64,000 bases of DNA from Cyanophora paradoxa CCMP329 (GCA_004431415.1 QPMI01000038.1:1-64000), one strand, 5' to 3'; positions 11,945 to 53,128 are shown, counted from the stretch's first letter. Numbers and translations: made by a program. Notes: generated by a model not told the origin, from the sequence alone.

Positions 11945-12943
11945 ATGTCGACTGTGTTTACCCCTGTGTTTTCCTTATCAGCCAGTGCTGTCCACAACGT
12001 GCAACACACTATATATGATCTAAGTGAGTCATTCCCTTCGACTGAGACAGCGAAAACCGATTCTTTCAATGAGACCTCCATTCTCAGAGTCAAAGAACTC
12101 AGAGCTGACAAGGCTGGTGGAATCGTTAAAGCTACTGAACTGATCGTATCGAATCGACCCGCAATATCTTCGGGGCTGGTCACCAAAGAAAATCTATATG
12201 AAGGTCAACAGGATTCCAAAACGACTTTTAATCCGGCTGACAGGAATTCGGCGGCTTTTCAAGTTTACAGTGGCGGGGCATGGATTGGGACTGGACTCTC
12301 AGTTAATGGGACAGTGACAGCTACTAACTTTGCGGGGGGATTCACAGGGTTACTCACAGCAAGTGGTGGAATTAAAACGAATTCGATTGACACTGTGGGT
12401 GCAAATGATAATGTTGTGATTAAACAAAATAACACAACAGTTGCTACAATCACATCAGGAGGGTTGTCAATTAATGCAGGTTACATTTCTAACAGACATC
12501 CTGTTTTCATGTTTTCTACTCCAAACACGAATACAGCTGGAACCGCAGGCACCAACACAAAAATTCCATTCAGTGTTTCACAATTTGAGGTAAACTCACC
12601 CACATTTAGCACTACCAACAATACGTTTCAAGCACCCATTAGGGGTATATACTTCTTTCAAGTGACCTTATATTTTATAGAAGTTACAGCAACATCCACG
12701 GATTTCACAATTGATATATCAAGCAGTTCAAGCTCGTTTACAGCCTATAATGCCCGCAATACTCAGCAGCTTTATAATGCATCTAAAAATGCTTCATTTA
12801 CTGGATTGGGAGTGAGTGCAACTTGGATAGTTCCAATGCAAGCAAACGATACAATATGTTGGTGGCTTTACTCACCACATGCCTACACTTATTTGAATGG
12901 AGGTAGATGCAATGTAAGTGGGTATCTTGTTTCCACATATTAA
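11945..12943 (+). CDS. C1q-domain fibre protein with shared N-terminal module
   Basis: N-terminal RVKELRADK.GG.VK module and a C-terminal C1q signature KIPF..FSTTNNTFQAPIRGIYFF..M.AND.I..SGYLV. Confidence 0.8.
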   Translation: MSTVFTPVFSLSASAVHNVQHTIYDLSESFPSTETAKTDSFNETSILRVKELRADKAGGIVKATELIVSNRPAISSGLVTKENLYEGQQDSKTTFNPADRNSAAFQVYSGGAWIGTGLSVNGTVTATNFAGGFTGLLTASGGIKTNSIDTVGANDNVVIKQNNTTVATITSGGLSINAGYISNRHPVFMFSTPNTNTAGTAGTNTKIPFSVSQFEVNSPTFSTTNNTFQAPIRGIYFFQVTLYFIEVTATSTDFTIDISSSSSSFTAYNARNTQQLYNASKNASFTGLGVSATWIVPMQANDTICWWLYSPHAYTYLNGGRCNVSGYLVSTY

Positions 12944-12964
12944 TTTCTGACACTATAATAAAAG

Positions 12965-13225
12965 ATGCCTACTATAAATTGTGATGTTTCAGACATTGAG
13001 GCACTTGCTATGACTGCATTCTTTACATCTGCACAAGATTGGATGAGAGAAGCTTTGAAATCTCGCACAGATATTGCGGTTAATGAGATTGTGGACAAAG
13101 AAGTGAAATCGTGTATTGGTGCTGGAATTCCGATTCCACTCACAAAGGAAGCGATTGTAGAGCAAGCTTTTAATCGGGGGACTGTTCGAAAGGCAAGCGA
13201 AATTCCTGTGAGTGCTCCTATGTAA
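12965..13225 (+). CDS. Small protein paired with C1q fibre (possible fibre assembly factor)
   Basis: 86 aa; clear homolog at 45366..45629 (QDW...R..IA..EIV.KE..SCI....IP..KEAIV.QAF.RGTV). Both lie directly downstream of C1q genes. Confidence 0.7.
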   Translation: MPTINCDVSDIEALAMTAFFTSAQDWMREALKSRTDIAVNEIVDKEVKSCIGAGIPIPLTKEAIVEQAFNRGTVRKASEIPVSAPM

Positions 13226-13246
13226 AGAGTCTGACGACTGGGTTTA

Positions 13247-14520
13247 TTGTTATTTTTCATAGATCATGCATAAGAAAGGCATGTATCTTGCATAGTGGGC
13301 GGGGCGCGAGTGGTTCCAGTGCATTAAATGGAACATTTCGATTGAAGTCGCGAGTGTGTGCAGGTGGGCATTTTCGGCATGCTTGCTCATGCACATACTT
13401 GCTTTCGTTATTTTTCATTGCTTGCGATAAATCGATTAATCGTGTTCTATCGTCGTACTTTGTCGATTATCGTACTCTATCGGTGGGGTTCACCTTGATT
13501 TCGTATTTGATCCATCCGGATTAAGGCTATCGGTGGGGGTCACCTTGATTTTTCAATTTGGGTAACTGAAAACAGTCCGGAAACGATCGGGAACATTTCG
13601 TAAAAATGAGGGTCTTACTGTCCTTACTGAGAGATCGGGGGAAAGTTAAAGGGCTTACTGGGAATGGTAAGGAATTAGAAAAATGAAGAATGAAAGGGTT
13701 TCGTGATTGGTTTCAGTAAGGAAGGGTTAGATGTTTGAAAAATACAATGTGGCTCAGTGCGAATTTGTGATTTTGTGACTGAGATTCGTGATGCTGAAAA
13801 TGTGCTTATTGAAAATGGTCGCGGGAAGGTCGCGCAATTGGTGGGGGTGACCACCCAGCGAGCGCCCCCGATCGCCGCGCCTACTCCGCCCCCTCGCCAC
13901 CCCGCCCCGCTGCTCGGCCCCACGCGCCGCCGCCGCCGCCGGCCCTGGTGGCCCCTGCCGAGATCCACCCGCCGACGCCTTCGCCGCTCCCGCCCCACTC
14001 CTGCCCGACCCCGCCCGGCCCGTGCCGGTGCAACTCCTTGGCTCCCGCGCTCGCCCTTCTCTCCCTATCAGAGCCGGCCCTCGCCTCGCTGGCCCCGGAC
14101 CTCGCGGAAGAATCATCCGCGTCGCCTCCGTCGTTTCTTCAGCTCCCCCGCCCCCCCACCCCTACCGGCTGAGCTGCAGGTTTCTGCTGCGCCGCCCTCC
14201 CGCCCCGACCTCCCCCTACCTGGCCTCCGTCCTGCAAAGTCCACTCGTGTACACCCCCGTACCCAGCGCCCGCTGACGCCCCTGCCCGCGCGCCCTCCCT
14301 TCTCGACAGCACGGGCACGTCGTAACGCTGCAGCCGCTCTCGCCCTGCGGAACAGCTGGCCCTCTTTACCGCCCCCAGAAGCTGTAAGGACTCGTCCGAT
14401 GGCTCCGCAGGCCAGCTCCCTCGCCGGCTCTCCTGCCCGGCCCCGGGGTTTCCGCCTCACGGTCCGCTTCGCGCTCTCGCCCGGCCGCTCTCTTCCCCGA
14501 CCCCGCCCGCCCCTCCTCGC
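13247..14520 (+). repeat. Left arm of a ~1.27-kb inverted duplication (partner 25827..27104)
   Basis: Reverse-complement match with a few substitutions and indels. It comprises the virus A end (13247-13863) plus LINE 5' sequence (13864-14520). Confidence 0.95.
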
Positions 14521-25948: not shown

Positions 25949-27104
25949 CGGACGAGTCCTTACAGCTTCTGGGGGCGGTAAAGAGGGCCAGCTGTTCCGC
26001 AGGGCGAGAGCGGCTGCAGCGTTACGACGTGCCCGTGCTGTCGAGAAGGGAGGGCGCGCGGGCAGGGGCGTCAGCGGGCGCTGGGTACGGGGGCGTACAC
26101 GAGTGGACTTTGCAGGACGGAGGCCAGGTAGGGGGAGGTCGGGGTGGGAGGGCGGCGCAGCAGAAACCTGCAGCTCAGCCGGTAGGGGTGGGGGGGCGGG
26201 GGAGCTGAAGAAACGACGGAGGCGACGCGGATGATTCTTCCGCGAGGTCCGGGGCCAGCGAGGCGAGGGCCGGCTCTGATAGGGAGAGAAGGGCGAGCGC
26301 GGGAGCCAAGGAGGTGCACCGGCACGGGCCGGGCGGGGGTCGGGGCAGGAGTGGGGGCGGGAGCGGCGGAGGCGTCGGCGGGTGGATCTCGGCAGGGGCC
26401 GCCAGGGCCGGCGGCGGCGGCGGCGCGTGGGGCCGAGCAGCGGGGCGGGGTGGCGAGGGGGGCGGAGTAGGCGCGGCGATCGGGGGCGCTCGCTGGGTGG
26501 TCACCCCCACCAATTGCGCGACCTTCCCGCGACCATTTTCAATAAGCACATTTTCAGCATCACGAATCTCAGTCACAAAATCACAAATTCGCACTGAGCC
26601 ACATTGTATTTTTCAAACATCTAACCCTTCCTTACTGAAACCAATCACGAAACCCTTTCATTCTTCATTTTTCTAATTCCTTACCATTCCCAGTAAGCCC
26701 TTTAACTTTCCCCCGATCTCTCAGTAAGGACAGTAAGACCCTCATTTTTACGAAATGTTCCCGATCGTTTCCGGACTGTTTTCAGTTACCCAAATTGAAA
26801 AATCAAGGTGACCCCCACCGATAGCCTTAATCCGGATGGATCAAATACGAAATCAAGGTGAACCCCACCGATAGAGTACGATAATCGACAAAGTACGACG
26901 ATAGAACACGATTAATCGATTTATCGCAAGCAATGAAAAATAACGAAAGCAAGTATGTGCATGAGCAAGCATGCCGAAAATGCCCACCTGCACACACTCG
27001 CGACTTCAATCGAAATGTTCCATTTAATGCACTGGAACCACTCGCGCCCCGCCCACTATGCAAGATACATGCCTTTCTTATGCATGATCTATGAAAAATA
27101 ACAA
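25827..27104 (-). repeat. Right arm of the inverted duplication
   Basis: Reverse complement of 13247..14520. Confidence 0.95.
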
Positions 27105-31022: not shown

Positions 31023-31129
31023 TGCAGCCCAAATCCCAGCGCGCACGGGTCAGCAGCTCGTCCTGCCACCACTCCGAAACATGGATGTTGATTCGCACAG
31101 GCCCTGCGCTGTTGCGATCAGGCACCTAG

Positions 31130-31698: not shown

Positions 31699-31984
31699 CA
31701 CACATAGTAAAATGCGGAGTTTTAACCCTCGGCTTAATCTTAATTGATTTTGTTGATATATCTCGTATATTCTATTTCAATCAATCGATAATCTGTGTAT
31801 ATCTTATCGAATTTTCATTTATTTCGATTATTTTGTATTCTTTTCGATATTTTATCGTAAATTTCTCTTATTTTCCGATTAGTCTTACTGAGTTAATCGA
31901 TAATCTGTATATATTTCCGAATAATATAACTGAATCTCAATTAGATCTTGCCTCTGGTTAAAACTCCGCATTTTACTATGTGTG
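31699..31984. repeat. Terminal fold-back of copy B: perfect 29-bp inverted repeat around a 228-bp AT-rich spacer
   Basis: CACACATAGTAAAATGCGGAGTTTTAACC (31699-31727) and its reverse complement (31956-31984). Confidence 0.95.
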
Positions 31985-32237
31985 ATTGGTCTAAAAGTTA
32001 ATTGATTTAATCGATATTATATTCATGTACTTTCTCGATTAAATTTAATTAAATTTAATTCATTTAATCGGAAACATATCGCTAAACTCGATTAAGATCC
32101 ATAAATGATTCATTTGTTTATATTAACAAATCGATCTCTTATTGAATTCAATCGTAATTATACATGAAACTTATATGATTTTATCATTGTTTTGTTGAGT
32201 CTAAGGGGGGACCCTTAGGTTTTTTTGAAATAATTGG

Positions 32238-32527
32238 GTGTGACAGGTGTGACAGGTCCATCCAAAACTTTTGATAGTTCATTTTTAGGTTATTGAAAAG
32301 TTTGGGATAGACCTGTCACACCTGTCACACACACCATATTCAGTAAGATCCTCTTTTATAATGAAAAATTCAGTAACAATAAGTAAGAAGTTTATCTATG
32401 TAATTCTACTTAAATAAACAAATGAAATAATCGAGTGTGACAGGTGTGACAGGTCCATCCCAAACTTTTGAAAGTTCATTTTTATGCTATAGAAAACTTT
32501 GGGATAGACCTGTCACACCTGTCACAC
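32238..32527. repeat. Two subterminal palindromic units built from TGTGACAGG 9-mers
   Basis: GTGTGACAGGTGTGACAGGTC...GACCTGTCACACCTGTCACAC at 32238-32330 and 32435-32527. Confidence 0.95.
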
Positions 32528-32996
32528 AAACCATATTCAGTAAGGACCTCATATATTGTGAAAATCTCAGTGTTAGTTGGTGTAGTTGATTCAAAAAATG
32601 CATTTTATACTCTGATTCATTGTTATTTCCTGTGAAATTTGAGTCAACTCAACCCACTTAGTCAACCCTTGCATTGAATTCGTAACAAAATCCATATACT
32701 ATTACTACTTTTACGATTAATATGAGTCAACCTTGAGTCCACTTTAATATAAATATTATATAATAGGGGGATTCTAGGGGAATGTTGAGTTTGACATTGC
32801 TTAATGTAGGGTGCATTCATATTTTGGCTACATCATACAGTAGAATTCTATCGAAAAAATGTTTGGAATCCGAAAACTAATCATTGTAGAAAGCTATTGT
32901 AGTAAAAGGATATATTATGTCCTTTTGTAACAGTAGCTGATCAATGTTATTGTTAGAAAACAAAGGAATCCTTTCAAAACTCATTATAGAAAACCA

Positions 32997-33395
32997 TTAA
33001 AACGGAAATCTATCATGTTTATGTCTTTCAGTCTTCTCAAATGTGAGGAAATTCATTGTTTTATCGATCTCATCTGCAACTGATTGTGTTTTATGCTGAG
33101 CTTCTTTACCACAACTGAATATATCAATTGCTAACATGCCTTCATTGGAATAACAATGAGCTGTACAGTGGCTTTCATCTAATAGCAGAACCAATGCAAA
33201 ACCAGGAGGTGATACTTTGCCATCAAATATCTCACAGTGTTTATGAACAATCCTAATGCCTTGTCTTAATACTGCTTGTTCAAGGGTTCCCATAATCCAA
33301 TTACCTAGGAAGCTCACATGCTCATGTCCTGTTGCAATAGCTGATTTAGCCTTGTAATCAAGCATAACATGAAAGCCTCTGTATTGAGTCTCCAT
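32997..33395 (-). CDS. speD: S-adenosylmethionine decarboxylase proenzyme (prokaryotic-type SpeD family)
   Basis: G.HVMLD, PPGF..VLLLDESHCTAHCY..G..AIDIFSCG with the pyruvoyl-forming E-SH site. Confidence 0.9.
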   Translation of the reverse strand: METQYRGFHVMLDYKAKSAIATGHEHVSFLGNWIMGTLEQAVLRQGIRIVHKHCEIFDGKVSPPGFALVLLLDESHCTAHCYSNEGMLAIDIFSCGKEAQHKTQSVADEIDKTMNFLTFEKTERHKHDRFPF

Positions 33396-33424
33396 TAAGA
33401 ATACCTTAGAAAAATTAATTAAAC

Positions 33425-33697
33425 CTAATCGAACCTAATGCAAACATCCCTATACTCTACTCTTATTGATGAAGTAGCCCTTTTCCTATGTGCTTGACTT
33501 TTTCTTTTATTACAGTCCCTACACCCTGATCCCTTCACATGATTAAAGGGATATGTTAGGATCACCTTGTTACACTGCAAACATCTAACAGATACTTTCT
33601 CTTGAGCTTTGATGTAATGTGTCTCACTGTAATCGAATTTATCTTTACCATGGACTGTCATAGCAGCATCAATAAACTTTTTTGTTTTACTATCCAT
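33425..33697 (-). CDS. DUF723/CapR-like Zn-binding protein
   Basis: FI..A..VHG..KFDYS...Y.....KV.V.C..C......P.NH..G.GC..C pattern, common in phages and giant viruses. Confidence 0.7.
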   Translation of the reverse strand: MDSKTKKFIDAAMTVHGKDKFDYSETHYIKAQEKVSVRCLQCNKVILTYPFNHVKGSGCRDCNKRKSQAHRKRATSSIRVEYRDVCIRFD

Positions 33698-33719
33698 ACT
33701 CTATATATAACCAATATTC

Positions 33720-34553
33720 TTATGGAGCAGTATCCTGCCCGAAAATGGGGAAATATCGATTTGTCCCATAGTATTCAGCATAGGTATTCTGCTTTGCAAT
33801 AAAATCGGTTCTCTCTGCAAACATCACACACTTGTAGATACCAAACTTGGTGGCTCTCACAAGAAACTGATAGTCTTCCAAACCGAAATTGACTCCATGA
33901 TAAGCAATTCCGAAATTGTCATATGGGGTGATCACAACTGCAAAGTTGGGAGTTCCACCTTCAACTTGGCATACAGCATAAACATCTGGTGGGATATCCA
34001 CAACTACCTTGTAGTGGTCACCAATTTCAACAAGAGAGTCTACTACTGCTGTTTGTTCATTCACAACAATTGGGAATATCTTTATAATGTATGGGGCATT
34101 CATGCTGGGGACATAGGTTCGAATTCTTGTGTTGGGATCAATGGGATTGGGTTGATCATTCACAAATAGAGGCGCTCCAACAGCCCCACCAACCCTAAGA
34201 CCATCACCAATATAAGCTCCCCCCGATTTGCAGTTAATAGCTCCCGACCTAGATTCAAAAGAATAAGTAGACAGAGGATCTCCATAGCTATCTGGGTCTC
34301 CATAATGAGCAGAAAAGTTTGCATTTGTGACAAGTAGCTTAGTTGTCTTAACTATTCCATTATTTTTATCACATCTGAGTTCTTGTAATCTCAGCTTGTG
34401 GGTGGAACCAAAGGTGTTCATTGTAGGTTGGACCTCTGTGGATTGGAGACCTTCCACATCATCAAAGGTAGCATGTTGCAGAACATGGTTTGCTGGTGCA
34501 GCTAATGAAAGCTGAGGTGTAATTATTCGTTCAAGTGGGGGTTGCTCAGCCAT
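33720..34553 (-). CDS. Putative virion protein, shared N-terminal module family
   Basis: LSLAAPANH..H...D...GLQSTE..F....LR..ELRCDKNNG.VKTT module; near-identical ortholog at 43619..44449. Confidence 0.75.
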   Translation of the reverse strand: MAEQPPLERIITPQLSLAAPANHVLQHATFDDVEGLQSTEVQPTMNTFGSTHKLRLQELRCDKNNGIVKTTKLLVTNANFSAHYGDPDSYGDPLSTYSFESRSGAINCKSGGAYIGDGLRVGGAVGAPLFVNDQPNPIDPNTRIRTYVPSMNAPYIIKIFPIVVNEQTAVVDSLVEIGDHYKVVVDIPPDVYAVCQVEGGTPNFAVVITPYDNFGIAYHGVNFGLEDYQFLVRATKFGIYKCVMFAERTDFIAKQNTYAEYYGTNRYFPIFGQDTAP

Positions 34554-34576
34554 TTTACATTAAAGGGATATATCTT

Positions 34577-35431
34577 TTATGGGGTTGGGTCATCAATCAC
34601 ATCTGGTTCCATGTAAAATCCTGTTGTGAATATATCAGCAACATTTACACCACGAAGTGCTGATACAGCTGCTATATCTGTTCTCAGTCCCATAATCATA
34701 GTATTGTATACTCCAACCTCAGTGACAAACAGATCATAGGTAAATGTCAAATTGTTATAAACACAATATCCTCTGCCAAAATGGTTCGAAGCTTGAACAA
34801 AGAATAAGTAGTTGTGACCTGGTTGATTATTATTGGCTCTACACATGGAAAGCATTGAAGTGGGAAGAGGAATATTTCTTCTTACTCGATCAGTTCCTGT
34901 AATGGAAACTAATTCCGAATTCTCAAGAGTTACAGAGGATGCAACATAGAAATGCAAAAAAGGTTGCTGTGCAACAGGTGTGTAGAAACGAATTCGTTGT
35001 GGGTTCTCAGCATTTTGCTCTAGAGTATCTGGGACATCATTGTAGGAAACAGATGAAGATAGCTGACCTGAAACTCTGCAGCCTCCACCAATAAAAGCTC
35101 CTCCTGATCTCACAGTAACAGCTGCAGAATTCTTATCGAAATCAAGGGCTTTCAGATCAACACTGTAAGCATCAGGACCTCCATTAGTAGGTTGGAAAAA
35201 GTTAGCATTTGTGACAAGAAGTCGAGTTGTTTTCACCACACCTGAGTTCTTATCAGCTCTCAGCTCTTTAACTCGAATAATCGAATTCTTATCAAAGGAG
35301 TTACCATTGGAATTGGGTCTCTCTGTGGATTCTAAACCACGAACCTCATCATTAACTTCATGCTGGCGAAAGTGCATTGCAGGGGATCCAAGGGAATATA
35401 TTGGAAGTTGAACTCGATTATATTCACCCAT
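34577..35431 (-). CDS. Putative virion protein, shared N-terminal module family (likely start MGEYNR)
   Basis: Same module (IRVKELRADKNSGVVKTT); ortholog at 44473..45327. Confidence 0.75.
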   Translation of the reverse strand: MGEYNRVQLPIYSLGSPAMHFRQHEVNDEVRGLESTERPNSNGNSFDKNSIIRVKELRADKNSGVVKTTRLLVTNANFFQPTNGGPDAYSVDLKALDFDKNSAAVTVRSGGAFIGGGCRVSGQLSSSVSYNDVPDTLEQNAENPQRIRFYTPVAQQPFLHFYVASSVTLENSELVSITGTDRVRRNIPLPTSMLSMCRANNNQPGHNYLFFVQASNHFGRGYCVYNNLTFTYDLFVTEVGVYNTMIMGLRTDIAAVSALRGVNVADIFTTGFYMEPDVIDDPTP

Positions 35432-35470
35432 TGCTTCTTTTACTAAAAAGGAAAGAAAAATAAACTGCAA

Positions 35471-35776
35471 TCAAGCCAAAGTGATTAAATTCGATCCAAG
35501 GGATTGGTAGGCAACTGAAAGTGTTTGAAGGTTAGATGTCATTGCTTTGATGTTGTTATCACATTCAGTGTATTTAGCTACAGGGTCACCATATGCAGAT
35601 TTGGCAAGGACATTAACCAAGAGGTTTTTATACTCATTTACAACTGGTGAGAGCTTGTTAGTTTGCTGAATCGTCTTTTCAACTGTTTGTAATGCGTTTA
35701 CAAGGGTGATTGTATCAAAAGAAAGCGCAACTGGCTCAGTAGAATAGGTGGTTCCACCAAGAGGATAGGTCGCCAT
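35471..35776 (-). CDS. Hypothetical helical protein downstream of the S74 fibre
   Basis: 101-aa ORF tightly packed between viral genes. Confidence 0.55.
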   Translation of the reverse strand: MATYPLGGTTYSTEPVALSFDTITLVNALQTVEKTIQQTNKLSPVVNEYKNLLVNVLAKSAYGDPVAKYTECDNNIKAMTSNLQTLSVAYQSLGSNLITLA

Positions 35777-35779
35777 TTA

Positions 35780-38700
35780 TTATACTTTGACATTTTTAAT
35801 TTGGTCTATTTGATCCTGTAGATCTTTGCATTTTTGGGACAACTCCTTCACAGCTTCAATGAGAACTGGAATTAAACCTGTGTATTCAAGAGATAGGTAG
35901 CCATCGTCTTTTTTAACATTAACTACCTCTGGTATTACCTTTTGAACATCTTGTGCAATTAAACCTAATTTAACTCCATCTTTTTCACTTCCAATTCGTT
36001 TAAAACTCACTCCCTCTAATTTCTCTATTGCTGAAAGAGCGCCGGATATCTTTTTAATATCGGTTTTGTATCTTATGTCACTTCCTTGTGTTAAATAACC
36101 TCCAATCCACATCCATCCTCCATGATACATGTAACAAATATCAGTATCTTGTTCATTTCGGAATACAAGGGGAATATCTCCCCCTCCTTTCAAATATGTA
36201 GAAGTTTGGTTACCGAAATGGATACGATTATATCCATCACTTGAACTAAACCAAGTCCCCACAGATCCTGTTAAGATATTTGGTTTACTATAAACGTTAT
36301 TCCAATGAATATAGCCGGTGTGACCACCATAACTATTTCCTACCCAAATTTTCATGTAACTAATACCCATAATATGAACTCTTCCAATCTTTGGTCTAAT
36401 CCGAATAGTGAGGAATCTATTTCCAAGATGTATTGGAACATTATTTAAACCACTGTGGTTACCATCAGGCGATGTGGCGTATGGTTGATAACTATTCACT
36501 GATGTAATAAAAACTTCATTCCCTTGTCTATTAACTCCCCAAATTTCAAAAAGTCGTGAGTTAGTCCAAGGTAAATAGGTTAAAAATGCTGTTCCTGTGT
36601 GGTATCCATCGGGTATATCGAAGTCAATCCAAGCGGTAGAAGTTTCGTCATCAGATTGATTATTATGGACATATGAACCATAATTATAATATGGATCCCA
36701 TGCTGTACTCCATGCCCATGTCCAACCCTCAGAACATCTATTAAATGCAATACCTCCTACTGTTTTATCTGCTGTGTGAAACTTTGGGACATCATTACCG
36801 TTTATTTGGAGTTTGGTAGTAGCATTAATAGTGGGTGCTGTAATAGTGTTATTCACCCAAAAGTTACCATTACCATATGATTTTAAGATTGCTGCATTCG
36901 CTGAGTTTCTAAATTCGACAGATACACCATCGCCATTTTCATAGCCTCGAATATATGTAGTTTGACCATTTCCAAACCAAATTCGCTCGACTGCATCTAC
37001 TGATTTTAACCATGCATTTGTTGCCCATGTTGCGGTTTGTGGAAGGTCTGCGGCTGAGTAAAATGATGGTTTACTAAATATATTATCCCAAGAGATCATC
37101 CCAACCTCATTATCTGTTGCCCTCTGTCTACTCCACCAAAAACACCTGTAAGATGGATTCTACCTTTTCGACCTTGAACATATATTTTTGTGTAAAACTC
37201 ACAGTTAATAGAGATGAAAAGTATACTGGATTGTGTTCCATCATGTACTGATGCTTGAATACCTTGATAAACATTTAAACGCCGAAGGAAATGTTGATTA
37301 CCATTAGCTGTTTGACCATAGATGTCAAAATATCTACAATTAGACCAACACATGGTTTGAATATAAAACGTTTTCATTCCTGTGGGGACATTCCACCTCA
37401 TCCAAAAAGCGCTACAATCTTCATCATTTTGTGGTGTTGTATAACATCCTGTTTGTCCGGTTCTTGGTGTCCATCCTAAGTTCCAATTATTTGCGCTTCT
37501 ATATGTCGAAACCACATCTAATTGGTCGAAATCGTAACCTTTTGGTATTGTGGTTCCACCAATTTGTAAAGTGGTAGCATTCACAGTTCCTGTTACAGTT
37601 CCACCTGTAAGAGGTAAATAATTCCCAAGAGCTGCTGTTAATTCGGTATCTGTTACAACATCTGTAAGAGCTAATTGTAATTCTGTATTTGTTACATAAT
37701 CTTTGTTTTCTAAATAATCATCTGTAACAACACCAGAGAGGGTCTCATTGTGTAAGTTTTTTGCTGCCATCCTCTGATTGACTTCTAAGGCTCCTCCTGC
37801 TAATGTTTTAATCCAGGACATTTCGCATTTCCCATAGTTATCTGATGGTTGTCCCGCAAGTGGGACATAATTGAATTTTGGATCGACTGAATATTATTTT
37901 AGGTCTGGAGCCATCAGTTGCACTGACATCTGTTACATTTACTTGCATAATGGCATCCTTGTCATCATATGCTGCTGGATCAGATGGGAGAGGTGGTAAT
38001 CCTGATGTCAATGGGATGTCCTCATTATAATAACTTGTTAAGAAGATGCCTGGTTTGGTATCAATCACCCCAACACCACCTGCTGAAATCATTTGGATTC
38101 TTGTTGGTTGTTTGATGTATAATTCACCTTCCATTGTGGTCCCTGCATCAATGCCTTTTCGATTGACATAATAATCATTTAGTTGTAGCCTTTCAGGTAT
38201 GGTATTACTCTGGTAGAGACTCACACCATTTGTAAAGTCTGTCAAAATATTGCCTGATGATGCAAAAGTTGGTTGTTCATCTATTTGACTCCAAGGGTGT
38301 CTGTGGTTGCTATTGGTTATTGTTGAGTAATCATGAGTGTGTGAATCAGGTGGGAAGGTTAATGGAGGATTTGTGATATGCTCCCATAAATGAGTATGGG
38401 CGAAATCTGTGATCTGATCTTTGGTGTGAGTATGTGCGAAATCTGTTATTTGGTCTTTTGTGTGAGTATGGGCGAAATCTGTGATCTGATCTTTGGTGTG
38501 AGTATGTGCGAAATCTGTTATTTGGTCTTTTGTGTGAGTATGGGCGAAATCTGTTATTTGGTCTTTTGTGTGAGTATGGGCGAAATCTGTTATTTGGTCT
38601 TTTGTGTGAGTATGGGCGAAATCTGTTATTTGGTCTTTTGTGTGAGTATGGGCGAAATCTGTTATTTGGTCTTTTGTGTGAGTATGGGCAAAATCTGTTA

Positions 38701-40282
38701 TTTGGTCTTTTGTGTGAGTATGGGCAAAATCTGTTATTTGGTCTTTTGTGTGAGTATGGGCAAAATCTGTAATCTGGGCTTTTGTGTGAGTGTGATTTTG
38801 AATCCAACCTTGAACCACATTAGAGGTTGGATGATGTGGTAAATTTGCATTGCTTGTAACTGTAAGGTAATCTATTACAGTATCAGGTGAGGTTATTTTT
38901 AATCCTCTGTAAATATTCAGAGTCTGGGTATGAGTGAATCCATATTTTTGTTGAATGTAATACCTCACAGCATTCTTTTCAGAAGTTGTCAAAGCCCTAT
39001 TGAAAACAATCAACTCGGAAATACCACCATTCACAATATTACCAAATCCGAAATGATTGACAGTATTATCTGGTAGATAATTTGTTCCTACAAGTGTTTC
39101 AATATCTACTCCATTTAACCCGACTGTGTAGCTGCTGGAAGTAATTGTTTGGTCAGTGTAATACCATGTATTTATTAAAGAAGGAACCGTAATAACTGGG
39201 CGGGTTTGGGATGCTCCATTAATAGTGAACTGGTTCATTCCAATAGCAGTAGAAGATGTTGCCCCATAATAACAATATCGTGATGGAAAGGCGCTTCTGT
39301 AAAGTCTCAAGTGAACTTGCATAGAAGAGGCAGTTGGATGATATTTTCCCACAAAGAAAAATGTAAGCCCATTTGAGAAATCAATAGTTCTTGCAGCAGA
39401 GGTATATGCATAAAAAGTGCCTGTTGGGTTTGAAACACTAACTTGGTTGTTGATTTCGGGATTGGTGTAATAGGAACTGGCTCCGGAGATAAACAAGTCT
39501 GGAACAACTGAATTCGGGACTCTGCTTACTATAGTTGTATACATTGCTGATTGACCTGGTACTCCTGATGCCTTCCAAGCAAAAATGCAGTTCGAGATAT
39601 TTGATGCTGGATCAAAGCTTGGTGGGACATCATACCATTCTTCGTAAACCTGATTCATGGTATTGAAATTGCAAGAGCCAATTGTGAGGATTCCATTTAC
39701 TTTCAAATTGCTGGTCTCTATATTGCTACTGTAAATATTACTATTAACTGTGAGGTTTCCTGTGATTGTCCCACCCACAAGAGGGAGATATTTGGATAGT
39801 TCTGCTGCAAGTTCAGCTTCTGTAATAAATTGATCAAGCATAGCAAGGGTTACAAAATTAACAAGGATTACTGCAGTAAGGTAATCCTCTGTGACCACTC
39901 TCGAAATATTTTCGTTGTGTATGTTTTTTGCAGCCATCCTCTGATTGGCTTCCAGAACCCCACCATAATCTGTTTTAATCCATGCAAGCTCTGCCCTCCC
40001 ATAATTATCATTTGCAGTTCCCACTATGGGAATGTAGGAATATTTATCTCTGCTGAATACTATCATTGGTCTTGAGCCATCTAAACTGCTTACATCTGCT
40101 ACATGAACCTGTATAGCAGAGTTGAAATTTTGGTAGGTTGCTGGGTCTGTTGGGACTCTGAATGTATCTGTGGGAATGTCAGCCTCCATGTAGCTTGACA
40201 CAAAGATATTTGGTATGGTTGCTCCTGGTTCAGGTGGTGGATCATAAGAGCCTGGTAATGTCCTAATATGAAGTGGTCCTCT
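35780..40282 (-). pseudogene. Large fibre gene (LamG-like domain, HxH repeats, C-terminal peptidase S74 intramolecular chaperone); 5'-truncated, two frameshifts
   Basis: ORFs 37838..40357, 37096..37821 and 35780..37099 join through single-base indels in A/T runs (~37878, ~37140), restoring collinearity with 8377..11889. SDIRYKTDI..GLIAQDVQKVIPEVV..LEYTGLIPVLIEAVKEL is S74. ISELIVFNRALT..E...V..Y...KYG is LamG-like. Confidence 0.8.
38391..38795. repeat. 36-bp coding tandem repeat x11 (HTHTKDQITDFA)
   Basis: The TGAGT(A/G)TG anchor spans 38391 to 38787, which is 11 x 36 bp. Confidence 0.97.
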
Positions 40283-41469
40283 CACTGGGAGCCAGAAATT
40301 AAGTTTACCATATGGTAAACTTAGGGGGTGGTAAAGGTGTGCCGTTTGCGTTACCACACGGTAAAGTCAGGGTGGTAAAGTCAGGGTGGTAAAGTTGGGG
40401 TGGTAAAGTCAGGGTGGTAAAGTTGGGGTGGTAAAGTCAGGGTGGTAAAGTCAGAGTTACATCCTGCTGCTTTCCCATATCCATGCCAGCGCTGTTTTTC
40501 CGTGCATGCTGATATATATATTACATGCAATTCACATCTTCCTCGCTAGCTACGTATACTGCGCATGCAGAGCTAGCTATAGCTCGCGCTGCATCGCTGC
40601 AGCGCCTATAGCTAGCTAAAGGCGCGACACACAGCTGGACCTGGGGGCGTGCAAAGGCGATGGCCATGGTCAGCTCAAGCTTTGGATGTACAGCGATTGC
40701 ATTGAGAGCGATAGAGGGGACAGCGCAGGTTATCACCTATGGGCCCAGCCGGCAGCCCCGCCTGCTCGCTCACCTTCGAGCAGCAAGGCCGCCGGCAGAC
40801 CCCACTGCTTGCTCACTTCAAGCAGCAGGGCCGGCCAACTGCAAATAGCGTGCTTTCAAAAAGGAAGGGTGCACAGACCTCTAGATCTTCGATTCTAGAT
40901 GAGAATGCTCTTGACAGCTCTGCGGGAGACAATACAGGCAGTGGTCAGCTGCATATCGATGCATATGAGAAAGAGGATCGGAAATCGCAATCTAACGCCT
41001 ACGGGCCCAGCCGGCAGCCCCGCCTGCTCGCTCACCTTCGAGCAGCAAGGCCGCCGGCAGACCCCACTGCTTGCTCACTTCAAGCAGCAGGGCCGGCCAA
41101 CTGCAAATAGCGTGCTTTCAAAAAGGAAGGGTGCACAGACCTCTAGATCTTCGATTCTAGATGAGAATGCTCTTGACAGCTCTGCGGGAGACAATACAGG
41201 CAGTGGTCAGCTGCAGATCGATGCATATGAGAATGAGGATCTGAAATCGCAATCTAACGCCTACGGACCCAACCGGCAGCCCCGCCTGCTCGCTCACCTT
41301 CGAGCAGCAAGGCCGCCGGCAGACCCCACTGCTTGCTCACTTCAAGCAGCAGGGCCGGCCAACTGCAAATAGCGTGCTTTCAAAAAGGAAGGGTGCACAG
41401 ACCTCTAGATCTTCGATTCTAGATGAGAATGCTCTTGACAGCTCTGCGGGAGACAATACAGGCAGCGGT
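40283..41469. mobile_element. Probable CACTA/EnSpm-type element end inserted in the copy B fibre gene
   Basis: Starts with CACTG where fibre homology to copy C ends. It has a 24-bp palindrome TAAGTTTACCATATGGTAAACTTA (40300-40323) and seven 14-bp subterminal repeats GGTAAAGT(CA/TG)GGGT (40360-40454). The other end is not seen. Confidence 0.5.
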
Positions 41470-41471
41470 CA
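40736..41471. repeat. 262-bp tandem repeat, ~2.8 units, third unit cut by virus copy C
   Basis: CCTA(T/C)GG(G/A)CCCA at 40736, 40998 and 41260. Confidence 0.95.
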
Positions 41472-41565
41472 CACATATTGAAAAACGAATTTAAATCCCT
41501 CGTTCATCTCGATCGCTTCGCGATCTCGATTCACTCTGGATTTAAATTCGTTTTTCAATATGTGT
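41471..41565. repeat. Terminal fold-back of copy C: perfect 28-bp inverted repeat, 39-bp spacer
   Basis: ACACATATTGAAAAACGAATTTAAATCC (41471-41498) and its reverse complement (41538-41565). Confidence 0.95.
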
Positions 41566-41884
41566 TAATTTAATACTAAAATACATATTTATCGATTAAT
41601 TTCTTTAACTTTTTATGCAAACTTTGTATAAATTAATGCAAACTTTGTATTAAAAATGATAAACGCGTTTAATTTAATGCATATTCACGATTGATTCAAT
41701 CGATATTATATCGATAGATTATGTTCTTTGTCGATTACATATATAACTTCGATTGATTAACATTAAACTACTTAAAGAACGATATAATCGCGATTAATTC
41801 GCATAAATTCGCATAAATTCGCATAAACTCGATATATCTCTTTGGTATTGAAGTAGACCACCGCCCATTCTGTATCAAAAAAAC

Positions 41885-42675
41885 GCAAAAAGTGTCACAT
41901 AGTTGCATTATGTCCAATTAAACAATCGATGAGATTGCGGATGTACATTTTTGCACCCAAAAAGTGTCACAGAGTTGCATTATCTCCAATTAAACAATTG
42001 ATTAGATTGCGGGATTTTCTATTGGAATATATCGGTACTGCATTATGTCCAATTAAACAATCGATGAGATTGCTGATGTACATTTTAGATCGAAAAAGTG
42101 TCACAGAGTTGAATGGTCTCCAATTGAACAATCGATTAGATTCCATATGTTCTATAAAACATAATAAATGAATTCAAGTGTGACAGGTAGTATTCAAATG
42201 ATATTCAGTAAGAGATATATTTGTTTTTGATAAAGTCAGTAAGAGGGGTAGAATGTCTGTGACAGGTGTGACAGGTGTGACAGGTGTTTTCAAAAGTCTG
42301 TCATTTTTGAAAAATTTAAAAAGTTTGAAAATAGGTGTCACACCTGTCACACCTGTCACACTCAATTAAACTACCTGTCACACCCGATCTCCTTACCATT
42401 TTCAGTAAGCCGGAAAGGTATTCATGAAATCGACTATTGTTGGGTGGATTTTGAAGGTGTCACACCTGTCACATAGACTGTTTTCAGTAAGACAACAATA
42501 AATTCTTGAAAATCTCAGTAATAAATAGAGTCTTTTGTTAATTGGGTGTGACGGGTGTGACAGGTGTGACAGGTGTTTTCAGAAGTCAGTAATTTTTGGA
42601 GAATTTTAAAAAGTTTGAAAATAGGTGTCACACCTGTCACAGGCGTCACAGTCAATTAAATAGGTGTCACACCCG
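41885..42675. repeat. Subterminal repeats of copy C: degenerate direct repeats, then two TGTGACAGG palindromic units
   Basis: TCCAATTAAACAAT-containing units occur about four times (41885-42140). (TGTGACAGG)3...(CCTGTCACA)n lies at 42258-42384 and 42547-42675. Confidence 0.9.
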
Positions 42676-42730
42676 ATTATCTGACCATTTTCAGTAAGAC
42701 CATCTGAAATTCTGAATTTTTCAGTGTCAA

Positions 42731-43132
42731 CTAACTCGGAAATCGCAATACTCTATGTTTCTCCGATTTCTCCAACCCTGAAAACACACCTGTTATTCTC
42801 TCATCTATCTCATGAGATACTCTCGTGGTTTTTCTTTCTGCTTCTAATCCACAACTGAATATATCAATCGCCAACATACCTTCATTTGAGTAACAATGAG
42901 CAGTGCAATGGCTCTCATCCAGCAGAAGAACCATTGCAAAACCAGGAGGAGAAATACCACCATCGAAAATCTCGCAATGCTTGTGAACTACTCGAATACC
43001 TTGCTCTTGAATAATAGTTTGCAAGAACTGCATTAACCAACTGGTTGTTGTCTCCAATTCCTCCATTCCTACTGCTAATTGGGTTCTGAATTTGTAATCC
43101 AGCATCACATGGAAGCCTCGATGAGTATTCAT
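42731..43132 (-). CDS. speD: S-adenosylmethionine decarboxylase proenzyme (SpeD family)
   Basis: GFHVMLD..PPGFAMVLLLDESHCTAHCYSNEGMLAIDIFSCG. Confidence 0.9.
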   Translation of the reverse strand: MNTHRGFHVMLDYKFRTQLAVGMEELETTTSWLMQFLQTIIQEQGIRVVHKHCEIFDGGISPPGFAMVLLLDESHCTAHCYSNEGMLAIDIFSCGLEAERKTTRVSHEIDERITGVFSGLEKSEKHRVLRFPS

Positions 43133-43172
43133 TTATGAATAATTTAGAAAAATTAAAAACGCGATTGGTAGA

Positions 43173-43322
43173 ATGCGAACCATCTTAGCAAGAGTGCTAC
43201 CTTATGAGTTGGTGGATATCATCCTGCTGCATTACCATAAGACCTGTCCAAACTGTTTTGATACATGCATAATCACGAAGGGAAAATGGGGAAAGATCCT
43301 CATTTCTCTCTCAAAGATCTAA
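43173..43322 (+). CDS. 49-aa micro-ORF with an F-box-like start and CxxC
   Basis: Translated by hand: MRTILARVLPYELVDIILLHYHKTCPNCFDTCIITKGKWGKILISLSKI. It fills the gap between speD and the Zn gene and is absent from copy B. Confidence 0.45.
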   Translation: MRTILARVLPYELVDIILLHYHKTCPNCFDTCIITKGKWGKILISLSKI

Positions 43323-43591
43323 TCAAAGTACAGTACCACTGGTTTATCATCTATCACAATTCCTGATGTCGTCTTTTTTCTATATGCATGAGAGGATTTC
43401 TTGTTGCATTCTCTGCATCCACTTCCCCTTACATGATTAAATGGGTATGTTTGGAGGATCTTGTTGCATTTAAGGCATCTAACAGAGACCTTCTCTTGCG
43501 CTTTCTTATAGACTGTCTCACTATAATCGAATTTAGAATCACCATGAACCATCATTGCAGATTCTATGAATTTCTTTGTTTTATCATCCAT
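43319..43591 (-). CDS. DUF723/CapR-like Zn-binding protein
   Basis: Ortholog of 33425..33697. Confidence 0.7.
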   Translation of the reverse strand: MDDKTKKFIESAMMVHGDSKFDYSETVYKKAQEKVSVRCLKCNKILQTYPFNHVRGSGCRECNKKSSHAYRKKTTSGIVIDDKPVVLYFD

Positions 43592-43618
43592 CCCTCTCTC
43601 TATATATACCTGAGATTT

Positions 43619-44449
43619 CTATGGAGCAGTATCCTGCCCGAAAATGGGGAAGTAGCGATTTGTGCCGTAATATTCTGCATATGTATTCTGTTTTGCAATA
43701 GCATCGGTTCTCTCAGCATAGAGAATGCATTTGTAGATACCAAACCTGGTGGCTCTCACCAAGAACTGGTAATCTTCAAGACCGAAATTCACTCCATGAT
43801 AAGCAATTCCGAAATTGTCATATGGGGTGATCACAACTGCAATATTTGGGGTTCCACCTTCCACTTGACAGACAGCATAAACATCTGGTGGAATATCCAC
43901 GACCACCTTGTAGTGGTCACCAATCTCAACAAGAGAATCAACTACTGATGTCTGTTCATTCACAACAATTGGGAAGATCTTGATAATATATGGTGCATTC
44001 ATACTGGGGACATAGGTGCGAATTCTGGTGTTGGGATCAATGGGATTGGGTTGATCATTTACGAAAAGAGGCGCACCAACAGCTCCACCAACCCGAAGAC
44101 CATCACCAATATATGCTCCCCCCGTTTTGCAGTTAATAGCTCCCGACCGAGATTCAAAAGAGTAAGTAGAAAGAGGATCACCATAACTGTCTGGGTCTCC
44201 ATAATGGGCAGAAAAGTTTGCATTGGTGACAAGGAGTTTCGTTGTCTTAACTATACCATTATTTTTATCACATCTGAGTTCCTGCAATCTCAGTTTGTGG
44301 GTGGAACCAAATGTATTCATTGTGGGTTGCACTTCTGTGGATTGGAGACCTTCTACATCATCAAAGGTAGCATGCTGCAAAACGTGATTTGCAGGTGCTG
44401 CTAATGAGAGTTGGGGTGTAATAATTCGTTCTGGTATTGGGGCAGCCAT
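43619..44449 (-). CDS. Putative virion protein, shared N-terminal module family
   Basis: Ortholog of 33720..34553. Confidence 0.75.
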   Translation of the reverse strand: MAAPIPERIITPQLSLAAPANHVLQHATFDDVEGLQSTEVQPTMNTFGSTHKLRLQELRCDKNNGIVKTTKLLVTNANFSAHYGDPDSYGDPLSTYSFESRSGAINCKTGGAYIGDGLRVGGAVGAPLFVNDQPNPIDPNTRIRTYVPSMNAPYIIKIFPIVVNEQTSVVDSLVEIGDHYKVVVDIPPDVYAVCQVEGGTPNIAVVITPYDNFGIAYHGVNFGLEDYQFLVRATRFGIYKCILYAERTDAIAKQNTYAEYYGTNRYFPIFGQDTAP

Positions 44450-44472
44450 TTTACATTAAAGTGATATATAAT

Positions 44473-45327
44473 TTATGGGGTTGGGTCATCAATCACATCT
44501 GGTTCCTGGTAAAACCCTGTTGTGAAGATATCTGCAACGTTTACCCCTCGAAGTGCCGAAACAGCTGCTATATCTGTCCTCAGTCCCATAATCATAGTAT
44601 TGTAAACTCCAACCTCAGTTACAAACAAATCATAGGTAAATGTCAAATTGTTATAAACACAATATCCTCGACCGAAATGGTTTGATGCTTGAACAAAGAA
44701 TAGGTAATTATGACCTGTTTGATTGTTGTTTGCTCTGCACATAGATAGCATTGCTGTGGGAAGCGGAATATTTCTTCTTACTCGATCAGTTCCTGTTATA
44801 ATAACCAATTCCGAATTTTCAAGAGTGACAGAGGAAGCAACATAGAAATGTAGAAAAGGTTGCTGTGCAACTGGTGTATAGAAACGTATTCGTTGGGGAT
44901 TCTCTACATTTTGTTCAAGAGTATCTGGGACATCATTATACGAAACTGATGAAGAGAGTTGTCCTGAAACACGACAACCACCACCAATAAATGCTCCTCC
45001 TGATCTCACAGTAACAGCAGCAGAATTCTTATCGAAATCAAGGGCTTTCAGATCAACACTGTAAGCATCAGGACCTCCATTAGTAGGTTGGAAGAAATTC
45101 GCATTTGAGACAAGGAGCCGAGTTGTTTTAACCACACCAGAATTCTTGTCTGCTCTCAGTTCTTTAACTCGAATAATCGAATTCTTATCAAAGGAGTTAC
45201 CATTGGAATTGGGTCTCTCTGTGGATTCTAAACCACGAACTTCATCATTCACTTCATGCTGGCGAAAGTGCATTGCTGGGGATCCAAGGGAATATATGGG
45301 AAGTTGAACTCGATTATATTCACCCAT
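44473..45327 (-). CDS. Putative virion protein, shared N-terminal module family
   Basis: Ortholog of 34577..35431. Confidence 0.75.
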   Translation of the reverse strand: MGEYNRVQLPIYSLGSPAMHFRQHEVNDEVRGLESTERPNSNGNSFDKNSIIRVKELRADKNSGVVKTTRLLVSNANFFQPTNGGPDAYSVDLKALDFDKNSAAVTVRSGGAFIGGGCRVSGQLSSSVSYNDVPDTLEQNVENPQRIRFYTPVAQQPFLHFYVASSVTLENSELVIITGTDRVRRNIPLPTAMLSMCRANNNQTGHNYLFFVQASNHFGRGYCVYNNLTFTYDLFVTEVGVYNTMIMGLRTDIAAVSALRGVNVADIFTTGFYQEPDVIDDPTP

Positions 45328-45365
45328 TGCTTCTTTTACTAAGAAGGAAAGAAAAATAATGTTCA

Positions 45366-45629
45366 CTACTCTTCTGTGACATTGTTATACTCAATAGCGC
45401 GTTTTACAGTTCCCCTTTGGAATGCCTGTAATACAATGGCTTCCTTTGAGGTTGGTATCTGAACTGCACCTGAGATGCAAGATTGAATCTCTTTCTGAAC
45501 AATCTCATCAATTGCAATTCTTGCTCTGTTGTGGGCAGCATTATCAATCCAATCCTGAACAGAAGCAGAGCAATATTCCATTCCCAAATTTTCAGTATCT
45601 GAGAGAATGACTTGGTAGATATTCGACAT
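45366..45629 (-). CDS. Small protein paired with C1q fibres
   Basis: Homolog of 12965..13225. Confidence 0.7.
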   Translation of the reverse strand: MSNIYQVILSDTENLGMEYCSASVQDWIDNAAHNRARIAIDEIVQKEIQSCISGAVQIPTSKEAIVLQAFQRGTVKRAIEYNNVTEE

Positions 45630-45651
45630 TCCTTAATCTACTACAAGAAAA

Positions 45652-46671
45652 TTAAACGATGCTAATCAATTCACCCGAAAGACCTGTTATACTTGAATAT
45701 GAACCAGAGGAGCTTGTGACCAGTGTCACATACTCATTTTGAGCAAGATTTAGAATGCAAGAGAAACACAATGCTTTATTGGTGTGTGTGCTGCTGTGGA
45801 TTTGGGAAATGCTTAAACCCCCAGGATCTGCATCATTCACTTTTATAAATAATTCGATAGTAGCTGATGTGGTCGAAAAAGAGAACACTGAAAATCGATA
45901 GTGTCCTGCAACAGGTGCTGTAAATCTTCCTGTTGATGTGCTAAATGCATTGGTATTGTTAACCCGAACTGTTGCCCAGTTTATCAGAGCAGCAGCAGAA
46001 GTAGCAGTGTGAGCATATCCAAGTTGAACTGAAAATCGTGGATGTGACGTTTTAAGATAGCATCCTTCATTTACTGTCAAACTATTGGCTTCAAGAGTAG
46101 CAACAGTGTTACTATTTCGTTTTAACAAAAAATTGACATCGGCTCCTGTATCAATTTCAGGAGAGACAACCTTAGTAGATGCTGTGATTATTGATTGTGT
46201 GTAGTTAGGAATACTTATACCAGCATTTGCTGTAACCAAACCTGTAAATGTGCTTGTTCCTGTAATGTTTACTTGATTTGCTGTAAGGGTTCCATCAATC
46301 ATTGCCCCATCTCCAATATAAGCGCCTCCACTTTTTACTACAAGAGCTGAGTTATTGATGGTGTTGTCAAAAGTAACAATCTTTGGTGTGGTGAACCCTC
46401 CCACATCATCATAAATTGCTGAATCTGATACAATCTGACCTGATTGAACTTGGTTCTTGTTTGAAACTATTAAACCTGTGGTTCTCACCCTCCCTCCATT
46501 TCGATCACATCGAATTTCTTTGCATCTGATCACAGAATGTTGAGAGAATGAATCGGCTCCTATGGTCTCTGTGCAAATGAAACCTGGGGTAGCATCTGTT
46601 ACTGTATGGTTGAGTTGATGCAATTTCGGCGCTGCATAACAGAAAACAGGGACAGCTATTTGAGTGGTCAT
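45652..46671 (-). CDS. C1q-domain fibre protein with shared N-terminal module
   Basis: HPRFSV..INW..V.VN...FSTSTGRFTAPVAGHYRFS..LNLAQNEYV..SGELI. Confidence 0.85.
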   Translation of the reverse strand: MTTQIAVPVFCYAAPKLHQLNHTVTDATPGFICTETIGADSFSQHSVIRCKEIRCDRNGGRVRTTGLIVSNKNQVQSGQIVSDSAIYDDVGGFTTPKIVTFDNTINNSALVVKSGGAYIGDGAMIDGTLTANQVNITGTSTFTGLVTANAGISIPNYTQSIITASTKVVSPEIDTGADVNFLLKRNSNTVATLEANSLTVNEGCYLKTSHPRFSVQLGYAHTATSAAALINWATVRVNNTNAFSTSTGRFTAPVAGHYRFSVFSFSTTSATIELFIKVNDADPGGLSISQIHSSTHTNKALCFSCILNLAQNEYVTLVTSSSGSYSSITGLSGELISIV

Positions 46672-46693
46672 ACTTTACATTATGTGGATAATA

Positions 46694-47764
46694 TTATGAT
46701 GAATGGACAAGGATACATCCAAAAAAGTATCTGATATTGTAGTTTACACCAGCATCTCCGGAATTGACCAGCCTGATCGAATCATTAGCTACAAGGTTCA
46801 CAATAATATCAAAACCAACAGTTGCATTTCCTGTTGCATTTTGAGAGTTAGAGTTAATTCCGAATGTTGTCCCATTTTTAAGCAAAGAGGTCAAATAAGT
46901 ATTGCTCTTAGCAGAATTGTAACCAGACGCATGGAAAAATACGAGGTAGTTTCCAGAAACAGGTGCAGTAAAACTTCCTGTTGCAGGATCGAAATTATTT
47001 CCATGGTTGACTATGACTCCTGTTGATGAGAACAAAGTTGTTCCACTTGCAGCGAAGTTTGTATCTTTTGAAGTATTGGGCGCTTGTTTTGTTGCAAAGA
47101 AACGAGGATGACTACTTAATTTGAGATACTTGTCTGTCGGAAGTGTAAGGAGCTGAACAGTTGTATTATCTGTTTGAGTTGTCTTTCCAAGAGAAAATAC
47201 TGTATTTCCATTTCGTTTGTAGTTCACATTTGCGTCTGTCCCATTATCTGTCTCAGGTGTGTTTATTCTTGTAGTAGCTGTGATAGTTTGATACTGAAAG
47301 TTGCCTGAGAGACCACCATTAAAGTTCATCAATCCTGTGAATACACTTGTCCCACTCACATTTAATTGGTTTGCTGTAACAGTTCCTGCTACATTTGCTC
47401 CATCTCCAATGTAGGCACCACCACTCTTCACCACAAGAGCGGAATTATTACTTGTGTTACCAAAAGTAAATATCTGAGCTGTGGTAAATCCACCTACATT
47501 ATCATATATTGCTGAATCTGGGACTACTTGACCTGCTTGAACTTGGTTTTTATTCGAGATTATAATGCCTGTGGTTCTAATCTTACCATTATTGCGATCA
47601 CATCGAATTTCTTTGAATCTGAGTATAGTATTCTCTGTGAAAGAGGTATTGCTTGTGGTTTCAGTGCAAATATACCCAGGGGTTGAATCAACTACTCCAT
47701 GAGAGGTGCTGTGTAGTGATTTGGCTGCAAGTTCATAGTTTGGGATTTCTAATAGAGAGGTCAT
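46694..47764 (-). CDS. C1q-domain fibre protein with shared N-terminal module
   Basis: HPRFFA..VNHGNNFDPATGSFTAPVSGNYLVFF..LLKNG..VNLVANDSI..FFGCILV. Confidence 0.85.
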   Translation of the reverse strand: MTSLLEIPNYELAAKSLHSTSHGVVDSTPGYICTETTSNTSFTENTILRFKEIRCDRNNGKIRTTGIIISNKNQVQAGQVVPDSAIYDNVGGFTTAQIFTFGNTSNNSALVVKSGGAYIGDGANVAGTVTANQLNVSGTSVFTGLMNFNGGLSGNFQYQTITATTRINTPETDNGTDANVNYKRNGNTVFSLGKTTQTDNTTVQLLTLPTDKYLKLSSHPRFFATKQAPNTSKDTNFAASGTTLFSSTGVIVNHGNNFDPATGSFTAPVSGNYLVFFHASGYNSAKSNTYLTSLLKNGTTFGINSNSQNATGNATVGFDIIVNLVANDSIRLVNSGDAGVNYNIRYFFGCILVHSS

Positions 47765-47789
47765 CTTTGTAATAGTGTGAGAATCTTTA

Positions 47790-53100: not shown

Positions 53101-53128
53101 TGCGATTCATAGAATTATCCGATTGACA

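Follow-up and report, generated by a model that had tools for sequence, protein, structure and literature searches.

A conserved N-terminal module with exchangeable tips in a putative short-fibre family from endogenous virus segments of Cyanophora paradoxa

The DNA analysed was a stretch of 64,000 nucleotides (nt) of Cyanophora paradoxa CCMP329, hereafter the window, and positions were counted along its whole length. It contained three low-GC endogenous virus segments (A, B and C), in which seven genes had in common an N-terminal module of about 125 amino acids (aa). All seven open reading frames (ORFs) listed in the first-pass annotation of this DNA were confirmed at their coordinates, and the motif described there was found: H-x3-H, TE, F, R-x2-E-x-R-x-D, G, N and A-x5-GG-x2-G. 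The members of the family were:

P0001, 11945..12943, + strand, segment A: module (about 11945-12328), short shaft and C1q-like tip
P0002, 33720..34553, - strand, segment B: module (34164-34553) and predicted H-type-lectin-like tip
P0003, 34577..35431, - strand, segment B: module (35042-35431) and second lectin-like tip
P0004, 43619..44449, - strand, segment C: duplicate of P0002
P0005, 44473..45327, - strand, segment C: duplicate of P0003
P0006, 45652..46671, - strand, segment C: module (46267-46671), shaft and C1q tip
P0007, 46694..47764, - strand, segment C: module (47360-47764), shaft and C1q tip

The N-terminal halves were 31.5-46.7% identical between types (blastp E-value, E, of 5e-20 or better) and 64% identical between P0006 and P0007, both of C1q type and both in segment C. 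A hidden Markov model (HMM) trained on the three C1q-type modules alone recovered the other four (E 2.5e-25 to 6e-23), and a six-frame search of the window with the module HMM found no eighth copy. The genes at 33720/43619 and 34577/44473 were duplicate pairs (95-99% aa identity), and the B/C duplication was a 1999-nt block at 87%; because the B pair duplicates two of the C genes, there were five distinct paralogues and not seven. The distribution of one gene in A, two in B and four in C, previously taken as the set of adhesins carried by a virion, was correct as a gene count; a count per virion is not readable from truncated segment copies. The residues invariant across 13 distinct modules were, in P0006 numbering, H18, H22, E35, F42, R49, E52, R54, D56, G60, N71, A109, G115 and G116; among these, the H-x3-H pair, E35 and D56 may be metal ligands. 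Synonymous:non-synonymous codon differences between the B and C modules were 37:1 and 27:1, and by this codon evidence the module was shown to be under purifying selection. The family is real and functional.

The module had not been recognised in the first-pass annotation, and it proved to be uncatalogued: Pfam, PHROGs and PDB sequences had no match to it, NCBIfam had none for the five of seven proteins scanned, and its best Atlas score (0.88) was in unnamed clusters. Among 1.84 billion representatives, eight proteins matched the module profile at E<=0.001, and seven of these carry the module; P0017 (E 1.3e-4), a long repeat protein in which only 34 profile positions were matched, was dropped. 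A word-based search gave one extra homologue, P0010. Three homologue clusters were Cyanophora paradoxa gene models (16 sequences, 22 accessions), ten of the 16 sequences being compared, and the remaining homologues came from ENA or Logan contigs. Scans reaching close relatives only found no module locus in IMG/VR (0 of 80 pattern matches), JGI metagenomes (0 of 66 and 0 of 28), GTDB genomes (0 of 38) or GenBank phages. A PDB-sequence match to MCM6 (E 0.03) and Pfam matches to Glyco_hydro_42M and Bactofilin (E ~0.008) were rejected as chance. A proposal that the GG-x-x-IG half belongs to a shaft repeat common in phages was also rejected (0 of 1303 ORFs at E<=0.1, equal to reversed and shuffled controls). 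This candidate N-terminal anchor domain is undescribed, and its binding partner is putative.

Three unrelated classes of tip were shown: C1q, a predicted H-type-lectin-like sandwich and a phage-related phrog_34132 domain. Of the three C1q tips claimed previously for the window, those of P0006 and P0007 were recognised by Pfam C1q; the tip of P0001 was only C1q-like, by phrog_15750 and by blastp against the P0006 (45652) tip (E 8e-15), and had no Pfam C1q match. Pfam C1q was also found in the homologues P0012, P0013 and P0015 (below the curated cutoff in P0015). The C1q tips were homologous and only 26-34% identical. The remaining four members had non-C1q tips, as claimed; the two other domains assigned to them were homologous to each other (25% identity over 130 aa, E 7e-8) and, by this alignment, the two types are one family. 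The P0002 tip was predicted as a six-stranded sandwich (predicted local distance difference test, pLDDT, ~55-68), and its residues 154-247 matched the receptor-binding domain of the Pam1 tailspike (7eea; Z 6.5, root-mean-square deviation (rmsd) 2.2, 69 aligned), the R2 pyocin fibre (6cu2; Z 6.0, rmsd 2.6, 78 aligned), Helix agglutinin (2ccv; Z 5.9, rmsd 3.0, 87 aligned) and AP22 gp53 (4mtm; Z 5.7, rmsd 2.6, 73 aligned). Phage and pyocin fibre heads together with Helix agglutinin were the five best of 48,161 chains, at 6-14% identity; Pfam H_lectin had no match on the lectin-like tips of the family. From the model, P0002-type tips are predicted to be H-type-lectin-like fibre heads: the likeness is in the six-stranded sandwich, and sugar binding by P0002 is putative. 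The third type was the tip of P0014, which matched phrog_34132 (function unknown); a proposed likeness of this tip to a Peptidase_G2-type chaperone was dropped, with no Pfam match at E<=0.05 and none in PDB.

A C-terminal adhesin head, as in a fibre or receptor-binding protein, was found for the C1q tips, and a lectin-like fold was predicted (Z<8) for the P0002 type; a fibre/adhesin type of tip is supported. C1q and H-type lectin heads are expected as trimers and, by analogy, the family proteins probably form trimers.

The first-pass annotation had described the tips as swappable. This held for the C1q-type class and for one third tip type, and failed for the lectin-like genes, which keep their tips. 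The module of P0014 was 89% and 91% identical to those of P0015 and P0023, and the tips were unalignable at E<=1e-3; P0015 and P0023 were 87% identical in the module and 33.5% in the tip. The tips of P0014, P0020 and P0021 were conserved at 97-98%. In a tree of the 13 distinct modules, P0014 grouped with the C1q members P0015 and P0023 (99/97), and the C1q label required three changes.

Public contigs, from DNA or untyped runs of one organism (20 such runs contained the segment C region), suggested a deep module and near single-copy C1q tips, depth being taken as a rough guide. One contig covered the P0001 tip and part of the neighbouring partner gene (12355-13135; depth 45.7 and 80); contigs of the capsid region had depths of 1136-1564 and 2417-2940, and the bins over the P0001 module were deep too, versus a shallow tip. 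C1q-tip contigs in segment C had depths of 133-352 vs. 568-1441 for the neighbouring fibre contig. Contig joints bridging the tips, checked in three DNA runs, were found at 45631->46220 (P0006) and 46676->47179 (P0007) in two of the three, at about the lowest depth, and the switch points mapped to aa ~137-147 (P0001), 151 (P0006) and 196 (P0007). Two presumed RNA runs had no contig over the viral genes, which says nothing on expression. The lectin-like genes were deep along the tip, with tip identities of 95-97% between B and C and synonymous:non-synonymous codon differences of 38:7 and 41:5; judged by these codons, purifying selection maintains the tips of the lectin-like members. Exchange of tips on a near-constant module is supported for the C1q class and the one third tip type.

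A short ORF followed C1q-tipped genes in segments A and C:

12965..13225, + strand: partner ORF of 86 aa, directly after P0001, 45% identical to the ORF at 45366-45629
45366..45629, - strand: partner ORF of 87 aa, after P0006, the last C1q-tipped gene of segment C

The partner family had no Pfam or PHROGs match at threshold and had 137 relatives in IMG/VR, 80 of which were used for the counts of loci. Of the 80 loci, 76 had an ORF upstream of the partner, and this ORF ended in a C1q-like tip in 58 of the 76 (HMM from the window tips) or, counting distinct sequences, in 41 of 55, compared with 36 of 735 other ORFs; Pfam C1q was confirmed in 40 of 47 upstream proteins tested. The loci lay in tail regions of tailed phages (51 hand-picked ORFs, 16 loci), and none of the 80 had the module (best E 0.066 and 0.17). 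Because the partner loci are phage tails without the module, the tip and partner make up a phage-type cassette on a non-phage base. The partner is a candidate for an uncatalogued fibre folding or assembly helper or chaperone.

The segments carrying the family (GC 37-44%, vs. 63-69% in the flanks) and the other genes of viral type were:

Segment A, running off the window edge (GC 44%): one family gene (P0001) and a capsid-like gene
Segment B, 31700..40320 (GC 37%): hairpin left end, S-adenosylmethionine decarboxylase, two family genes and an S74 fibre; cut inside the fibre gene
Segment C, 41471..54720 (GC 40%): hairpin left end, S-adenosylmethionine decarboxylase, four family genes, long fibre and patatin-F5/8, with an rve-type integrase at the right end
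1..1217, - strand, segment A: frameshifted, double-jelly-roll, major-capsid-like gene, off the window edge
2139..3073, + strand: frameshifted candidate penton-like gene
1644-2324, - strand: second frameshifted penton-like candidate
8377..11889, + strand: long fibre containing HxH repeats and weakly matched by PTR/H_lectin, without the module
47790..50834, - strand: long fibre of segment C, without the module

The capsid-like gene of segment A was 48% identical to an intact relative, P0009 (aligned to 1217-2), which scored 0.98 in Atlas to Capsid_N/Capsid_NCLDV clusters; a double-jelly-roll major capsid gene was found in this way, through P0009, in segment A alone, and its assignment is weak by the Atlas recognition score. 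Capsid searches in IMG/VR were empty. Both penton labels (2139..3073 and 1644-2324) come from a motif which we take to be penton-like, with no library match for either candidate; there may be two penton-like genes, on opposite strands. Genes of the capsid region (1-3073) had many single-base indels when compared with the majority contigs in three DNA runs, and those from 3080 were intact; the indels are either local decay or assembly error. The rve-type integrase of segment C (53663-55168) matched rve at E 0.003, below the curated cutoff, and phrog_956 at E 5e-11. No packaging ATPase or replication gene was found among 32 ORFs scanned, in segments of which A leaves the window and B and C end abruptly on the right. 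Terminal repeats were short hairpins at the left ends only, with no paired long terminal inverted repeat in the window. The family elements are multi-copy integrated viruses, likely of Polinton-like type (Polinton-like viruses, PLVs). Judging from the retroelement and gene content, the host is probably a microbial eukaryote.

Other features were observed in and beside these segments. The long fibres (8377-11889, 37838-40366 and 47790-50834) consisted of shuffled shared blocks with HxH repeats of variable number, and this repeat-number variation was visible in contigs. The left-end hairpins were followed by inverted TGTGACAGG repeat arrays (31699-32527 in B, 41471-42659 in C), together possibly replication origins. 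A G-rich short tandem repeat (40328-40455) lay exactly at the segment B cut in the fibre gene. The S-adenosylmethionine decarboxylase genes (32997-33395 in B and 42731-43132 in C, - strand) belong to a type, AdoMet_dc, already tabulated for PLVs in PMC12220804. The patatin phospholipases at 3080-4573 (A) and 50919-52460 (C) were 36% identical, F5/8 being detected in the C copy. A reverse transcriptase ORF of 3860 aa (14366-25948, - strand; RVT_1 and weak RNase H) abutted the right end of segment A, was flanked by a 1278-bp inverted repeat of 99.3% identity (13247-14520 and 25827-27104) and contained a ~125-bp tandem array (22103-24056). To the left of segment B, an ORF (31130-31393, - strand; no Pfam match) had an N-terminal tail that we take to be histone-H3-like, followed by unrelated sequence.

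On balance, these results make it probable that integrated, likely Polinton-like viruses join a conserved ~125-aa module to exchangeable tips as short trimeric fibres, docking via the module. In each fibre the module would be seated in the virion, and the tip would attach to the host surface. Recombination shortly behind the module (aa ~137-196) would replace the C1q tip and, in one copy, part of the partner gene along with it, giving the copies of one element family different binding heads on a common anchor. The lectin-like pair would be fixed fibre components, with one or two C1q-headed fibres as the variable ones; the module may fold only with its trimer mates or docking site, and the partner ORF may act as a folding or assembly helper. 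The socket would be a capsid protein (with somewhat less than an even chance), most likely the penton, rather than a long fibre (with a sizeable minority chance). More tentatively, a plug-and-socket anchor may mount several different fibres on the capsid of one virus family, and the tens of integrated copies may be a recombining library of phage-derived C1q-plus-helper cassettes that supplies reactivating viruses with new binding specificities.

Several observations weigh against docked, exchangeable short fibres. Segments B and C, with six of the seven genes, had no homologue of the segment A capsid gene or other capsid match in the window; the module literally occurs there without capsid genes, an occurrence named beforehand in the first-pass annotation as speaking against its proposal of a capsid-docking domain; B and C both end abruptly, however, and the missing capsid genes may reflect truncation. 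The module is missing from the long fibres, which would be the obvious proteins to bind the penton. The Atlas recognition score of P0009 was 1894, short of the 2300 mark, its Pfam shares were 10-18%, and the capsid-like gene had no match in Pfam, PHROGs, NCBIfam or PDB. The lectin-like matches were all at Z<8 on a model of pLDDT ~55-68, possibly just a common strand arrangement, and Foldseek with the P0002 model found nothing in PDB at E<=0.001. For tip exchange, contig depth is no copy number, the sequence between the joints was not shown, a plain deletion being possible, and the P0005 tip was 4-5 times shallower than its own module (summed depth). No confident AlphaFold monomer of the module was obtained (pLDDT <50 in the P0002 model), and a module-only model (mean pLDDT 43.7, predicted template modelling score 0.20) was too poor for a fold search. 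A poor monomer model would be in keeping with an intertwined or partner-dependent structure, but it also results from shallow alignments.

It is possible, with a modest chance, that the module attaches the short fibres to a long fibre or hub protein (such as 4617, 8377 or 47790) in a branched spike, with no direct capsid contact. Branched multi-spike docking occurs in phages and was counted in favour of this arrangement, together with gene order: in A and C the family genes come directly downstream of a long-fibre gene (8377 and 47790, respectively), and in segment B a single short ORF (35471) separates them from the S74 fibre; the long fibres lack the module themselves, and B and C retain fibre and family genes without capsid genes. 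However, adjacency of family and long-fibre genes is no proof of binding, and the long fibres had no identified docking domain in common, 4617 and 47790 matching each other weakly over just 33 aa (E 0.006). As a docking site, the long fibre is nearly as likely as the capsid.

It is improbable that B and C are satellites without a capsid, or else domesticated remnants, whose proteins act off the virion, as cell-made lectins or as fibres lent to another virus. The lack of a capsid gene in B and C, the hairpins and TGTGACAGG inverted repeats at their starts with abrupt ends, and a strong purifying selection that could reflect a role beyond the element's own virion would all be expected; but segment A has the module together with a capsid-like gene, the genes lack introns, have a low GC content and lie close together as in viruses, and the tips and partner are of the kind found in phage fibre loci. 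Very improbable is a history without exchange, in which tips merely diverge faster than the module after duplication: amino-acid change was indeed greater in tips than in modules and the C1q tips are homologous at only 26-34%, so that some C1q-to-C1q differences possibly arose in this way, but the reading is contradicted for P0014/P0015, the modules of P0014 and P0015/P0023 being 89-91% identical under a phrog_34132 tip in one and C1q-like tips in the others, and P0014, P0020 and P0021 sharing their tip at 97-98%.

The family offers a defined candidate anchor under strong conservation, with naturally differing tips on almost identical bases, and its socket and ligands are testable with small proteins; a phage C1q-fibre cassette with a widespread uncatalogued 87-aa partner appears grafted onto a likely eukaryotic virus. 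If the module were only a shaft or trimer base, it would be a modest new domain. Fibre attachment and host-cell choice in PLVs have so far been inferred largely by analogy with adenovirus. The adenovirus fibre N-terminal tail and the T7-type tail-fibre anchor are conserved N-terminal anchors bearing a variable C-terminal head; the window family shares this working model with them without a sequence match, in a module of ~125 aa with the invariant H-x3-H, E and R-x2-E-x-R-x-D.

Fibres have been reported in PLV virions, passages of 10.1101/2022.07.28.501842 describing one in Gezel-14T particles, and passages of 10.1101/2025.10.09.676808 report phage-like fibres in Tetraselmis PLVs. PTR + H_lectin and patatin + F5/8 fusions are described for glaucophyte PLVs in parts of PMC12220804, a gene kit (S74, PTR, PTR+H_lectin, patatin-F5/8) like that of the window, where the PTR/H_lectin matches are weak. 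Phage-like fibres in those parts are mostly long, unlike the short fibres of the window family, and section 13 describes no family of short fibres built on a common N-terminal module. C1q had no mention in the text and two supplements of PMC12220804, nor in the searchable part of the text of PMC10120064. The literature search found no paper joining Polinton-like fibres with C1q; subscription papers and preprint supplements, which were unsearchable, may annotate such genes.

The N-terminal module was not in the 80 phage loci examined, unlike the C1q tip and partner. In metaviromic islands of marine phages, according to passages of PMC3909814, the N-terminal part of a C1q receptor-binding protein recruits deeply and the C1q part under-recruits, which was read there as host-recognition variability. 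This is the same pattern of a deep N-terminus and a shallow C1q as in the window contigs, seen there in tailed phages of a wild population and here in integrated copies in the DNA of one organism. Phage-like fibres are already known from PLVs, and variable C1q heads on an unchanging N-terminus from marine phages; the candidate anchor domain of the window family is undescribed.

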